Positions 8,369 through 14,307 of a DNA stretch of 64,000 nucleotides are shown here, one piece after another. Location: NCBI GenBank assembly GCA_963741205.1, contig CAVUHW010000008.1, positions 96,001 to 160,000 of the forward strand, read 5' to 3'. The notes under the pieces are model-generated. The model worked only from the letters and a program-made list of their open reading frames with translations. It was not told where the DNA came from and did not search any database. The stretch comes from Nitrospirota bacterium (GTDB lineage Bacteria > Nitrospirota > UBA9217). The position numbers were made by a program, and so were the translations under genes. Position 1 is the first letter of the stretch, and each line of letters opens with the position of its first letter.

Positions 8369-8454
8369 GGAGCCAGGAGCCAGAAGCCAGGAGTCAGAAA
8401 GAAATGCAATAAGCTCTCTCCTGACTCCTGACTTCTGACTTCTGACTCTCCTGA
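8369..8454. repeat. Heptamer tandem/inverted repeat hairpin (G[GA]AG[CT]CA x4 / T[CT]CTGAC x4)
   Basis: GGAGCCA GGAGCCA GAAGCCA GGAGTCA ... TCCTGAC TCCTGAC TTCTGAC TTCTGAC. Confidence 0.85.
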
Positions 8455-8458
8455 TGCT

Positions 8459-9751
8459 TTATTTCTTCTCCATCCTCACCCTGATCGTATTGCCGTGCGC
8501 TTCGAGCCCTTCGACATCCGCAATCTGCATCACTGCCTCCCCGACCCTCTCCAATCCTTCCTTCGTGTAGAAGAGCAGGCTCGACTTTTTCATGAAGCTG
8601 TCCGTGGACAGGGGAGAGAAAAACCGCGCCGTGCCGCCCGTAGGAAGCACATGGTTCGGCCCGGCGATATAGTCTCCCACGGATTCGGGCGTGTAATGAC
8701 CGAGGAAGATGGCACCCGCATTCTTGATCAGCGCCAGGAGTTCGAAAGGTTTATCCACGGCGAGCTCGAGATGCTCCGGGGCGATGGAGTTCGACACGTC
8801 CGCCGCCTCCTGCAGGCTGCCGGTAATCACGATCGCTCCGAAGCGGTCGATGGCCTTACGAGCGATTTCTTTTCTCGTCAGGTTCGCCATCTGGCGCTCT
8901 ACTTCGGCGTCCACCTTCTCGGCGATTTCCTTCGATGTCGTTATGAGAATGGATGAGGCAAGTTCATCGTGCTCCGCCTGGGAAAGCAGATCGGCAGCAA
9001 CGAATCTCGGATTCGCCGATTGGTCCGCTATGACCAGGATTTCGCTCGGACCGGCGATCATGTCGATGTCCACTTGGCCGAAGACATACCGTTTAGCCGT
9101 GGCCACATAGATATTGCCCGGGCCTACGATCTTGTCTACCTTGGGGACGGAGGCGGTGCCGTATGCCATGGCCGCTATCGCCTGCGCTCCGCCAATCCGG
9201 TAGATCTCGGTCATCCCGGCGATGTCCGCGGCAACAAGGATGTAGGGGTTCAGGTTACCGCCAGGCGCCGGCGAGCACATGATGAGCTGTTCCACGCCCG
9301 CGACTTTTGCGGGGATGACGTTCATGAGCACCGTGGAAGGATAGCAGGCCTTTCCTCCGGGTACGTAGACGCCGACGCTCCGGATCGGCCGCGCCAGCTG
9401 GCCAAGGATCACGCCGTCGGCCTCCTGGCTGACCCAGGAGCTCATCTTTTGTTTTTCGTGAAATGTCCGGATGTTTTGAGCCGCGAGTTTGAGCGCTTCG
9501 ACTTTCTTTGTATCAACTTGCGTATAGGCTGCCTTGATCTCGTCCGGAGAAATCCTGATGTCCTTGAGTGTGAGCTTCACCTTGTCGAACTTCTCGGTGA
9601 ATACCAGCACCGCCGGATCGCCTTCCTTCCGAACACGTTCCACGACTTCCTTGACTGCCACGGAGACTTCCTCCGTCGCGGTCTCACCGCGGTTGACGAT
9701 CCGCTTGAGCTCGATGGTGATGTCTTTTTCACTTGCGTCGAAGATCTTCAT
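8459..9751 (-). CDS. hisD: Histidinol dehydrogenase
   Basis: YVPGG, GPGNIYV, IDMIAGPSE, SQAEHD, APEHLE, GPNHVLPT. Confidence 0.97.
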   Translation of the reverse strand: MKIFDASEKDITIELKRIVNRGETATEEVSVAVKEVVERVRKEGDPAVLVFTEKFDKVKLTLKDIRISPDEIKAAYTQVDTKKVEALKLAAQNIRTFHEKQKMSSWVSQEADGVILGQLARPIRSVGVYVPGGKACYPSTVLMNVIPAKVAGVEQLIMCSPAPGGNLNPYILVAADIAGMTEIYRIGGAQAIAAMAYGTASVPKVDKIVGPGNIYVATAKRYVFGQVDIDMIAGPSEILVIADQSANPRFVAADLLSQAEHDELASSILITTSKEIAEKVDAEVERQMANLTRKEIARKAIDRFGAIVITGSLQEAADVSNSIAPEHLELAVDKPFELLALIKNAGAIFLGHYTPESVGDYIAGPNHVLPTGGTARFFSPLSTDSFMKKSSLLFYTKEGLERVGEAVMQIADVEGLEAHGNTIRVRMEKK

Positions 9752-9774
9752 GCAAACCCTCACTTCTTAATGTT

Positions 9775-9854
9775 TAACCACGGATGAACACGGACAACTC
9801 GGAAAATTGGAAAAAAATCTTTTTGAAGGTTTAAACCGTGTTCATCTGTGGTTA
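9775..9854. repeat. 9-10-bp periodic inverted repeat (AACCACGGATGAACACGG type)
   Basis: TAACCACGGATGAACACGGACAACTCGG ... ACCGTGTTCATCTGTGGTTA. Confidence 0.85.
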
Positions 9855-9860
9855 CAATTC

Positions 9861-11109
9861 TTACACTCTCTTGATGTCCGCTCCGAGCGCGGAAAGCTTC
9901 CCCTCGATGTCCTCGTATCCCCGGTCGAGATGGTAGATGCGTGAGATCACAGTCTGGCCTTCCGCCGCCAGTCCCGCGAGGATGAGCGATGCGCTCGCCC
10001 GGAGGTCCGTCGCCATCACCGGCGCAGCCGAAAGCTTCGAAACGCCCTTGACGACGGCGGTGCGGCCGTCGGCCTCGATTTCGGCGCCCATCCGCCGGAG
10101 TTCGGCGACGTGGGTGAAGCGGTTTTCGAAGATGGTCTCGTTGATGACACTCGTCCCGTCCGCCAAGCGTCATGAGGCTCATGATTTGCGCCTGCATGTC
10201 CGTCGGGAAGCCGGGATATTCCAGGGTTTTGACGTTCACCGGTTTTATGGTTCGCGGTCCCGTCACGCGGATCGTGTTGTCGCTGACCGTTATTTCCGCC
10301 CCTGCTTCGACCGCTTTTGCAAGCACGGCGTCGAGGTGAGCGGGATTGCAGCTCTTGATGAGGACTGAACCTCCCGTGATGGCCGCGGCCATCACGAACG
10401 TGCCCGTTTCGATCCGGTCGGGCATCACCGTGTAGTTCATCGGCCTGAGCCGCTCGACACCCCTGATCGTTACGATGTCGGAGCCCGCGCCTTCGATCCT
10501 CGCGCCCATCTGAATGAGGGCGTTCGCGAGGTCGATGACCTCAGGCTCCCGCGCCGCGTTTTCGAGGACCGTTTCCCCCTGTGCGAGCGCGGCCGCCATC
10601 ATGAGGTTCTCGGTGCCGGTCACAGTCACCGTATCGAAACAGATGCGGGCCCCCCGGAGCTTTTTCGCCGACGCCACGACATAGCCGTGCTCTATCTTGA
10701 CCGATGCTCCGAGCTTCTCGAGCCCCATGAGGTGCAGGTTGATGGGCCGGGCGCCGATGGCGCAACCGCCCGGCAGCGAGACGCGCGCCCTGCCCATGCG
10801 CGCCACGAGCGGGCCGAGCACGAGCACCGAGGCGCGCATGGTACGCACGAGATCATAAGGGGCCTCCGGTTTCGAGAGGGCCGTGGAATCGAGGACGATG
10901 TCGTGGTCCTTCCGCTCAAAGGACACGCCCATGTTCTGGAGGATCCTGCCGAGCGTCGTCACATCTGCGAGGCGCGGAACGTTCGAGATCGTATGTTTTC
11001 CCGGGCATAATAGCCCAGCGGCAAGGATCGGCAGCGCCGCGTTTTTGGCCCCGCTGACGCCGACTTCACCGGTGAGTTTTTTACCGCCGTTGATGACGAT
11101 GGTTTTCAT
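9861..11109 (-). CDS. murA: UDP-N-acetylglucosamine 1-carboxyvinyltransferase; frameshift near 10165
   Basis: [58 protein letters not shown]. Confidence 0.96.
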
Positions 11110-13159: not shown

Positions 13160-13172
13160 AGGTTAAGGTAAT

Positions 13173-13288
13173 TAACCACAGGTGACGTCCCCCGCTCCGT
13201 TTCTATCACGATAGATGCGGGACGGAGCCGCACACGGTAAGGCATGAAGCGACAGACCGGAGTCTTTAACCGTGTTCATCCGTGGTTA
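13173..13288. repeat. AACCAC..-type inverted repeat with a second hairpin inserted in its left arm
   Basis: TAACCACAGGTG[..GCTCCGT..TCTATC AC GATAGA..ACGGAGC..]CACACGGT ... ACCGTGTTCATCCGTGGTTA. Confidence 0.7.
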
Positions 13289-13320
13289 CTCGGATTTGTC
13301 TTCCAACAAAAAACCCCGCT

Positions 13321-14226
13321 TCAGCGGGGTTCCATCGCGAGGGCTTCATTGAGGGACCTGATGGCCACCTCAATTTGATCATCTGACGGTTCCCGTGTCG
13401 TGAGACGCTGGAGCCAGAGCCCCGGCTTCATCAATACCTTGATGACCGGGTTCCCGCACTTCTTCGCGCTGTATTTGATGAATTCGTAGCCCAGTCCCGC
13501 AATCAGCGGGAGCAGCACGATCCTCGACAGCCCCTTGGCCCAGAGCGGCCAGGCGCCAGGTATGAGCGAGAACAGGAGTATCGAAAGGGCGATGACCGCG
13601 AGCAGGAAGCTTGTGCCGCACCGGGGATGAATGCGGGAGTAGGGCCGGGCGTTCTCGACGGTGAGCGGGACGCCGGCCTCGTATGCGGCGATGGACTTGT
13701 GTTCGGCCCCGTGATACTCGAATACCCTCCTGATGTCCTTCATGAACGATATGCCGGACACGTAACCGAGAAACAACGCCATGCGCAGCGCGCCGTCCGT
13801 GAGATTGAACAGGACGCTGTTCTTGCCGACGGCGCCGTAATGCGCGCCGAGCAGGTTGGTGATGAGCAGAGGCAGCGCCAGAAAGATGCCGAGGGAAAAC
13901 GCGATTGCCACGACCATGGTCCCGGCCATGGCGAGCGGGCTGATCTCCTCTTTCTTTCCGTCCTCGCTTTCGAGCGCTTCGTTCGCCGAGAAATTGAGCG
14001 CCCGGATGCCGAGCCACAACGCCTCGAAGAGGGCGAACGATCCCCGGATGATCTTTTTCTTGAGGATCGGATAGCGTTCCCCGATGGGGACAATCGTCTC
14101 CCGCAAGACCGCGATGTCAGCCCCGGCTTTGCCCCCTTTGCGCACCGCTACGGTAAAGGCGTGCGGCGAGCGCATCATGACGCCCTCAAGCACCGCCTGC
14201 CCGCCTATGTTTATTGATTCAGGCAA
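13321..14226 (-). CDS. DUF1385 membrane protein
   Basis: IGGQAVLEGVMMR, YHGAEHK, HPRCGTSF, TTREP; usual rpmE-prfA neighbourhood; TTG start inferred from SD. Confidence 0.9.
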   Translation of the reverse strand: MPESINIGGQAVLEGVMMRSPHAFTVAVRKGGKAGADIAVLRETIVPIGERYPILKKKIIRGSFALFEALWLGIRALNFSANEALESEDGKKEEISPLAMAGTMVVAIAFSLGIFLALPLLITNLLGAHYGAVGKNSVLFNLTDGALRMALFLGYVSGISFMKDIRRVFEYHGAEHKSIAAYEAGVPLTVENARPYSRIHPRCGTSFLLAVIALSILLFSLIPGAWPLWAKGLSRIVLLPLIAGLGYEFIKYSAKKCGNPVIKVLMKPGLWLQRLTTREPSDDQIEVAIRSLNEALAMEPR

Positions 14227-14237
14227 GTCAGAACCTC

Positions 14238-14307
14238 GTGGGAGTGGCAAGTAGCAAGTAGCAAGGTTTTGACTTCCTGGCTACTTGACCCTTGCTCCAT
14301 GACCCAT
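14238..14307. repeat. Heptamer-periodic inverted repeat (TAGCAAG type)
   Basis: TGGCAAG TAGCAAG TAGCAAG ... CTGGCTA CTTGACC CTTGCTC CATGACC. Confidence 0.7.

Follow-up and report, generated by a model that had tools for sequence, protein, structure and literature searches.

To our knowledge, hairpins made of heptamer repeats have been known in cyanobacteria for decades, and neither an origin nor a function has been accepted for them. We describe here hairpins of comparable build from the genome of a Nitrospirota bacterium. The DNA analysed, called the window throughout, is a stretch of 64,000 nt (contig C8, CAVUHW010000008.1, positions 96001-160000) of an assembly of 4.27 Mb in 50 contigs with 56% G+C that is 84% complete. 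In its gene run rpmE-DUF1385-prfA-prmC-murA-hisD-hisG, each of the six junctions holds an inverted repeat made of short tandem units. We consider it probable, at roughly 0.6, that these six hairpins represent solo copies without cargo, or else remnants, of small insertion cassettes of the type found as intervening sequences (IVS) in rRNA.

The open reading frame (ORF)-bearing IVS in helix 45 of the Coxiella burnetii 23S rRNA carries a PF05635-family gene, S23p, between stem-forming terminal inverted repeats; RNase III cuts its 28-bp terminal stem, and direct repeats of heptamers are described beside the S23p ORF (PMC4990558). A paper from 2024 still terms PF05635 functionally uncharacterised (PMC11270868). 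The likeness to our locus is that relatives of this genome carry the same gene family between arms of the unit types seen in the window. The window elements differ in occupying mRNA spacers instead of rRNA helices (all six gaps are between protein-coding genes), in enclosing no ORF and in having loops of 8-90 nt. The short tandemly repeated repetitive (STRR) sequences of heterocystous cyanobacteria include 7-bp-repeat hairpins of unknown function between the co-transcribed genes hupS and hupL (PMC2670836). Tandem 7-bp repeats forming a hairpin between co-transcribed genes are also what the window holds, a likeness of description; its host belongs to a different phylum, 8- to 10-mer units are also present, and a link to gene cassettes is found here, of which the available STRR text has no mention (PMC2670836). 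Repetitive extragenic palindromic (REP) sequences, bacterial interspersed mosaic elements (BIME) and the hairpin-forming REP doublets called REPIN are likewise short extragenic palindromes downstream of genes in operons, strain-variable and, in their miniature form, mobile (PMC3116915). From these our elements are set apart by tandem-repeat arms, and by dozens of sequence types as against one per transposase, and no link to a REP-associated tyrosine transposase (RAYT) was found.

Beyond the Coxiella IVS we found no literature tying heptamer hairpins to PF05635 cassettes, in a search of the literature outside subscription journals. What the locus adds is a solo population within one operon, rapid turnover within a genus, exchange of cargo at one junction, a fixed arm order and an excess of hairpins in cassette-bearing genomes. 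Together with its relatives it connects heptamer hairpins and PF05635 genes outside the cyanobacteria, the same arm types occurring with and without cargo.

Inverted tandem-unit hairpins at six operon junctions

A preliminary description of this DNA, made from its letters, had claimed an inverted repeat of tandem short units at all six junctions, a common architecture with differing sequence, and five unit types across the six gaps. All of this was borne out (6/6 gaps). Four types are heptamers (AGTCAGG-like, GCGCATA-like, ATTGCGG-like and GCAAGTA-like), and one is a 10-mer type (CACGGATGAA, with ends TAACCAC...GTGGTTA) that is used twice, in murA>hisD and DUF1385>prfA. Junctions are named with the upstream gene first, and coordinates are those of the window.

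8368-8454, minus strand: hisD>hisG hairpin; arms 8368-8399 and 8418-8454, about 4.5 heptamers, AGGAGYC versus CTYCTGA
9775-9854, minus strand: murA>hisD hairpin; TAACCACGGATGAACACGG (9775-9793) versus CCGTGTTCATCTGTGGTTA (9836-9854)
11117-11175, minus strand: prmC>murA hairpin; four GCGCATR-type heptamers versus about three CTMTGCG-type units
12049-12088, minus strand: prfA>prmC hairpin; ATTGCGG CTTTCGG versus TCAAAAT CCGCAAT
13173-13288, minus strand: DUF1385>prfA composite; 10-mer outer arms 13173-13185 and 13276-13288, nested hairpin 13192-13225
14243-14301, minus strand: rpmE>DUF1385 hairpin; GCAAGTA x3 (14247-14266) versus CCTGGCTACTTGACCCTTGC (14276-14295)

RNA folds of the transcribed strand were compared with 200 dinucleotide shuffles. 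The hisD>hisG hairpin (dG -57.8 kcal/mol, z -7.3) begins about 5 nt past the hisD stop codon and finishes about 10 nt ahead of the hisG Shine-Dalgarno sequence. At murA>hisD (z -4.9) the arms are 19 nt long and 95% complementary, contain the 10-mer in about two copies and enclose a loop of 42 nt. The prmC>murA arms, GCGCATG GCGCATA GGGCATA GCGCAAA (11117-11144) against 11151-11175, are 75-77% complementary, and the hairpin ends 7 nt ahead of the murA ATG (11109; z -3.2). Only about two units, 81% complementary, are left at prfA>prmC (z -2.0), a decayed short copy of the ATTGCGG type that takes up almost all of the 49 nt separating the prfA stop codon (12092-12094) from the prmC ATG (12042). 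In the DUF1385>prfA composite (z -1.7) the left arm is truncated to TAACCACAGGTGA, facing CCGTGTTCATCCGTGGTTA at 13270-13288 on the right, and the rpmE>DUF1385 arms are 80% complementary (z -2.1). Judged by z, two hairpins are strong and four weak or decayed, prmC>murA with its z of -3.2 being graded moderate; stem-forming inverted tandem arrays are clear in four gaps and weak in prfA>prmC and DUF1385>prfA.

No T run follows any of the six hairpins and none was returned by the terminator scan, so they do not qualify as intrinsic terminators. Rfam assigned no family to them at gathering score, the sub-threshold hits being chance matches to eukaryotic microRNA precursors (at most 30.3 bits against cut-offs of 60-100). 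There is no small cargo gene between the arms of any of the six, for which reason we class them as derivatives lacking cargo and not as cassettes. Taken together they are more than chance would give, since an inverted-repeat score of at least 9.5 was reached by 6/6 window gaps, by 189 of the 884 co-directional gaps of 45-170 nt delimited in the genome with a crude in-house proxy for gene calls, and by 33 of the 884 gaps after shuffling.

A genome-wide population of such hairpins

Tandem Repeats Finder (TRF) returned period 7 as the most frequent tandem-repeat period of the genome, with 581 arrays after merging of overlaps. An inverted partner within 150 nt was present for 147 of these, compared to 3 of 581 in a reversed-not-complemented control; the excess was lesser for periods 14, 8, 9 and 10 and was not seen for period 6. 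A strict TRF-based census yielded 178 hairpin loci genome-wide (97 of period 7, 24 of period 14, 20 of period 9, 18 of period 8, 14 of period 10 and 5 of period 6), and the period-7 loci comprise at least 44 different heptamers. Among the six window hairpins, this census includes only hisD>hisG. The gene proxy placed 138 loci, of which 97 are co-directional, 23 convergent and 7 divergent, with 11 lying inside a proxy gene; divergent gaps are depleted, 17.8 loci being expected there by count and 23.3 by length. Hairpins cluster modestly at adjacent junctions, with 9 pairs where 3.65 would be expected (P about 0.01).

Of 133 loci, 123 have the arm richer in purines on the 5' side. Since either strand of a hairpin gives the same reading, the arm order is intrinsic. 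An apparent polarity of the arms relative to transcription (purine-rich 5' arm in 63 of 69 co-directional loci) was rejected on this ground, and a comparison of arm order between the leading and lagging strand, meaningless for the same reason, was withdrawn. A fixed arm order that is the same on both strands, together with the regular phasing of the units, would suit DNA-level inverted, iteron-like arrays to which a protein, possibly the four-helix-bundle protein itself, binds on double-stranded or cruciform DNA. That mismatches show no strand bias and that PF05635-bearing genomes have more hairpins would fit as well. At least 44 heptamers would, though, require many specificities, and this genome has the hairpins and no PF05635; we regard such putative binding arrays as quite improbable.

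Copies of the 10-mer type are found at about 20 extragenic loci of this genome, with conserved ends and loops of 40-90 nt. A population this uniform, in a genome with three Y1_Tnp matches, brings to mind REPIN-like elements moved by a RAYT (Y1 transposase), an origin that would apply above all to the type TAACCAC...GTGGTTA. The flanks of the three Y1 genes are, however, without arms of the window types, two of these genes are identical IS200-like copies, the copy number is low and tandem-unit arms are unlike REP sequences, so that we find this origin scarcely credible.

Several individual loci are worth recording. ATTGCGG-type hairpins stand on both sides of a tRNA gene at G000:C45:51533-51700. 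At G000:C15:84186-85364 and G000:C34:145504-145700, four pseudopilin-type genes (KGFTLLE/KGFTLIE) have an AATCCGC array, belonging to the upstream hairpin, that reads through as a leader peptide (..SAIRNPQSK); one such gene, traced codon by codon, has no in-frame ATG, GTG or TTG after the preceding stop. AGTCAGG-type arms 365 nt apart enclose an apparent frameshifted C-terminal gene half at G000:C27:98549-98979, which we take to be of the CbiC/CobH type from its motifs.

The same arm types bracket small genes in related genomes

According to the preliminary description, similar arms flank TIGR02436, GxxExxY and DUF559 genes, and a genome search for all three was proposed. This holds for PF05635 in relatives and for GxxExxY in the genome itself; DUF559 had no match in this genome, nor had TIGR02436/PF05635. 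Of 41 related genomes, 25 have PF05635 above cut-off, none with more than 12 matches. In the loci first retrieved, inverted tandem-unit arms bracket the gene in 12 of 12 cases. Among 40 further loci, several of them truncated by contig ends, the arms scored at least 14 in 29, against 2 of 40 in the control. Four of the five window unit types serve as arms of PF05635 cassettes in relatives from the same genus and family:

AGTCAGG type: L032, L043, L048
GGGTCAAG / AGTAGCAAG, GCAAG/GTCAAG type, the type of rpmE>DUF1385: L030
GCATGG / GCATAG, related to the prmC>murA type: L055, L056
AATGCGG, related to the prfA>prmC type: L060

In L032 and L048 the arm provides the AGGAG ribosome-binding site, and the ORF terminates at a TGA within the 3' arm. 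The genome of the window itself has two GxxExxY matches, both broken and each between tandem-unit arms. At the junction of an acd-like and a DRTGG-type gene (G000:C22:152500-153110) one of them is present as a decayed cassette whose arms are of the CACAGAG type, and three relatives (G015, G003 and G006; loci L027, L030 and L045) have PF05635 cassettes with three different arm types at the same junction, apparently a hot spot for insertion.

Of 47 cassettes, 18 have two flanks that map near each other in this genome, and the sites are of four kinds. Clean empty sites are found opposite L043, with 5 nt from stop to start, and opposite L034. The sites of L036/L041, L040/L049 and L063 hold a solo hairpin of another type, those of L048 and L038/L051/L057 another palindromic element, and the fourth kind the GxxExxY remnant. 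At own-genome junctions where relatives have cassettes we noted a palindromic repeat of about 100-130 nt without tandem units, CGTCATTCC[C/G]G...CGGGAATGACG (G000:C17:7503-7888, G000:C34:197973-198261). At G000:C34:192001-192159 the reading frame of the upstream gene runs on into what is left of a GGGACGA-type arm, which gives it a C-terminal extension, beside a solo hairpin of another type; in the relatives G014 and G009 this site holds a PF05635 cassette with GGGACGA arms.

Pairs of inverted arrays 150-1300 nt apart in the own genome were considered as cassettes and rejected, since they are solos in successive junctions around ordinary genes (kpsF-like, pseudopilins, aminotransferase, tRNA). 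A second search of this genome for cargo gave 5 candidates, none of them a cassette. The C30 hairpin of this genome, taken at one point for the counterpart of a cassette at a mutS junction, was discarded because the junction is M23 peptidase>thiD.

Hairpin abundance was counted by the same census as above in about 200 kb from each of eight relatives.

With PF05635 (G014, G024, G019, G003): 7, 4, 16 and 7 hairpin loci, 34 in 800 kb
Without PF05635 above cut-off (G001, G002, G016, G004): 0, 0, 1 and 3 hairpin loci, 4 in 796 kb

Of these eight, G001 and G014 stand as sisters on the protein tree. Regarding the operon studied here, at least one junction folds with z of -3 or below in 13 of 13 genomes with PF05635 above cut-off, compared to 1 of 8 without.

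Turnover of the junction hairpins in relatives

A PrfA search across 41 genomes led to 20 loci, which were retrieved and compared. Gene order is identical in these 20 relatives and throughout the family, and each junction holds, depending on the genome, one of several hairpin types, a decayed copy or no hairpin at all. Because junction content differs, decays or vanishes under a constant gene order, the hairpins are dispensable and turn over fast. Gaps identical among distant relatives, with no gene-filled alleles, had been named in the preliminary description, together with a lack of RNA processing at these sites, as the observation that would speak against its proposal; in the alignment the gaps differ, and the objection falls.

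For every window hairpin, at least one relative carries the same type at the corresponding junction. L010, the closest relative by a tree of concatenated proteins, has a unit type in common with the window at 0 of 6 junctions. At hisD>hisG the AGTCAGG type is present in the window, in L004, L005 and L008 and in L011 of another genus; it is decayed in L001, L003 and L006, replaced by the 10-mer type in L010 and L012 and by an AATTGAA type in L015 and L016, and L017 has nothing there. The 10-mer type of murA>hisD recurs at this junction in L013, with ATTGCGG-type hairpins in L005, L012 and L015; L008 and L010 have other types, L009 has a hairpin-free gap of 48 nt, and in L017 the gap is 10 nt. 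At prmC>murA the window type is found in L017. Full ATTGCGG hairpins stand at prfA>prmC in L007, L011, L012 and L015, and the window copy resembles a shortened version of these; in L004 and L017 the gap measures 25 and 21 nt. At DUF1385>prfA the 10-mer type is present in L009 and L013, and at rpmE>DUF1385 the window type occurs in L008, and L003 and L006 keep short remnants of it. In four genomes of the same genus (L001, L002, L003, L006) all six spacers fold like shuffles (z -2.0 to +1.8), which means that the operon functions without hairpins.

Tandem-array arms of variable copy number, orthologs that differ in unit number and by point changes, and dozens of unit types could also be produced in place, with slippage expanding the units and template switching at quasi-palindromes keeping the arms alike; the hairpins would then be a mutational by-product and not insertions. 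Growth in place does not account for the recurrence of a small set of unit types across genera, at junctions unrelated to one another and in cassette arms, for whole spacers swapped for another type between sister genomes (window and L010) or for clean empty sites. Slippage should moreover act everywhere, yet G001 and G002 have 0 loci in 400 kb. We therefore judge this explanation improbable.

Long gaps of the operon in relatives were examined as possible cassettes and rejected, as they contain an FkbM-like methyltransferase gene (L013) or no clear ORF. In L013, from genome G019, this ORF of 278 codons is inserted at murA>hisD and followed by the solo hairpin of the 10-mer type. A TGAGG downstream of the murA>hisD insert, taken for a mark of the insertion point, was dropped because it adds one base to the ribosome-binding site and occurs in 7 of 17 genomes. 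A further repeat class (CCTCTCCCC...GGGGAGAGG) is present in prmC>murA of L008, L010 and L016.

A probable cassette origin of the solo hairpins

We infer that solos were derived from cassettes, or spread by the same machinery, and arrived by insertion. The ends of a cassette are inverted arrays of short tandem units, mostly 7-mers and also 8- to 10-mers, and a full cassette consists of one small gene between such arms, a PF05635 four-helix-bundle gene in relatives and a GxxExxY gene in the own genome. The PF05635 product is the protein of the 23S rRNA intervening sequences. In the scheme that we favour, cassettes and solos alike would insert between the stop codon of the upstream gene and the next ribosome-binding site. 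They avoid promoter regions, are dispensable to the host operon and are replaced, decay or are lost within a genus, and the solos would be carried along in operon transcripts. By analogy with rRNA intervening sequences, RNase III might cut the transcribed stems of 20-35 bp, and such cutting might split or cap the polycistronic mRNA.

A number of points weigh against this origin. Neither a transposase nor a recombinase, target duplication or intermediate tied to the elements was found. The own genome, in an assembly that is 84% complete, yielded no PF05635/TIGR02436 gene or remnant (profile search; best tblastn E 0.2), and with 7 well-formed loci per 200 kb it is an exception to the association between hairpins and PF05635; since related genomes are not independent, the PF05635 associations are in any case leads and not tests. 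The 10-mer type, which occupies 2 of the 6 window gaps, is the arm of 0 of 52 cassettes, and a solo with the same arms as the relative's cassette was seen at 0 of 18 mapped sites in the own genome. Gene-filled alleles of the six junctions, for which the preliminary description had suggested a search along with presence or absence at orthologous sites, did not occur in the 20 relatives sampled, where the presence/absence part was confirmed. The gene proxy covers only 71% of the genome. At the RNA level, a sense-strand G.U bias is not significant (44 wobble mismatches sense, 38 antisense), and compensatory change affects 0 of 31 pairs in four orthologous copies, four sequences being too few to weigh. 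The preliminary description had proposed empty, non-autonomous members of a structure-recognised mobile system targeting operon junctions. Its view of the elements as empty counterparts of cassettes stands; recognition by structure and mobility are suppositions.

A wider version is more doubtful and is put forward tentatively: tandem-unit hairpins could be a general, structure-defined insertion vehicle that homes to stop/ribosome-binding-site spacers of operons and to rRNA helices, swaps PF05635 and GxxExxY cargo, displaces its own kind at hot-spot junctions and persists as solos only where cassette proteins act in trans. If true, unexplained heptamer repeats of bacteria, the cyanobacterial STRR among them, would be footprints of this system. 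Integron attC sites offer an analogy only, being structure-defined, sequence-diverse imperfect inverted repeats tied to small, promoterless, interchangeable genes. Unlike there, two arms bracket the gene in our case, and single insertions are scattered over junctions in place of arrays at attI.

Possible roles in the transcript

The gene for RNase III (rnc) is present in the own genome, and by analogy with the IVS it is plausible that the hairpins are cleaved by this enzyme or have a stabilising role. In four orthologs, the 3' arm end of the hisD>hisG hairpin, CUCCUU, can pair with the hisG Shine-Dalgarno AAGGAG (in the window, 8348-8367 with 8368-8375; columns 96-99 with 108-111 of the ortholog alignment); this is possibly an alternative structure coupling the hairpin to hisG translation.

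Such pairing would fit hairpins that are RNA signals selected by the host in the manner of STRR or REP, serving as protection from 3' exonucleases, as processing sites or in translational coupling, without any tie to cassettes. The position of the hairpins in transcribed co-directional spacers and their depletion from divergent gaps agree with this, as does the free downstream Shine-Dalgarno sequence of hisG, and for the 7-bp hairpins at hupS-hupL a stabilisation of transcripts or coupling of translation has been proposed (PMC2670836). We nevertheless think a host-selected signal unlikely: in L001, L002, L003 and L006 the gaps are unstructured at all six junctions, in L017 gaps measure 9-10 nt, copies decay (four of the six window hairpins are weak), G.U strand bias and compensatory change are both missing, and arm types common to cassettes are left unexplained. 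With no sign of RNA-level selection in the sequence and unstructured junctions within the genus, co-option as an RNA signal, the further suggestion of the preliminary description, is weakened as well. The questions that this locus and its relatives raise are whether RNase III cuts operon mRNAs at the stems and whether cassette proteins bind or move the arms.

Gene order and gene boundaries

By Pfam identification, every gene in 7426-15870 lies on the minus strand, in the transcription order rho, rpmE, DUF1385, prfA, prmC, murA, hisD, hisG. Gene starts were reset by sequence inspection and tblastn against relatives.

14313-14513, minus strand: rpmE (Pfam); ATG at 14513
13321-14226, minus strand: DUF1385 (Pfam); start TTG at 14226
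12092-13159, minus strand: prfA (Pfam); stop 12092-12094
11179-12042, minus strand: prmC (Pfam); ATG at 12042
9861-11109, minus strand: murA (Pfam); ATG 11109; frame break near 10166-10172
8459-9751, minus strand: hisD (Pfam); ATG at 9751
7426-8347, minus strand: hisG (Pfam); frame break near 7854
13309-13331, minus strand: terminator-like stem, AACCCCGC TGAA GCGGGGTT then a T run, with the DUF1385 stop codon in its loop

With these starts, the gaps from rpmE>DUF1385 through hisD>hisG measure 86, 161, 49, 69, 109 and 111 nt. The seven genes are those that the preliminary description had joined as a hisG-hisD-murA-prmC-prfA-DUF1385-rpmE operon, in the reverse of the order of transcription; that they form a single operon is uncertain. 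The stem at 13309-13331 is separate from the repeat hairpins and did not appear in the output of the simple terminator scan, and its GCGGGGTTTTTT motif is retained in family-level relatives. As a terminator-like stem at the end of DUF1385 is conserved in this way, the seven genes may form two transcription units.

Both murA (9861-11136) and hisG (7426-8347) are split over two frames, and tblastn shows the halves to be contiguous in all family-level relatives; the frame breaks are either assembly errors or the mark of pseudogenes. The longest murA ORF begins at a false ATG (11136) within the prmC>murA hairpin. Hairpins of this kind thus affect annotation by creating false upstream starts, as in this ORF, as well as C-terminal extensions and odd gene starts.

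The rho>rpmE spacer (14514-14622) contains a promoter-like site at 14614-14586 and, at 14568-14544, a hairpin with a T run behind it, AGCCACAGC...GCTGTGGCT. Both are conserved genus-wide, with the 3' half tandemly repeated in L002, and this hairpin may be an rpmE leader or attenuator.

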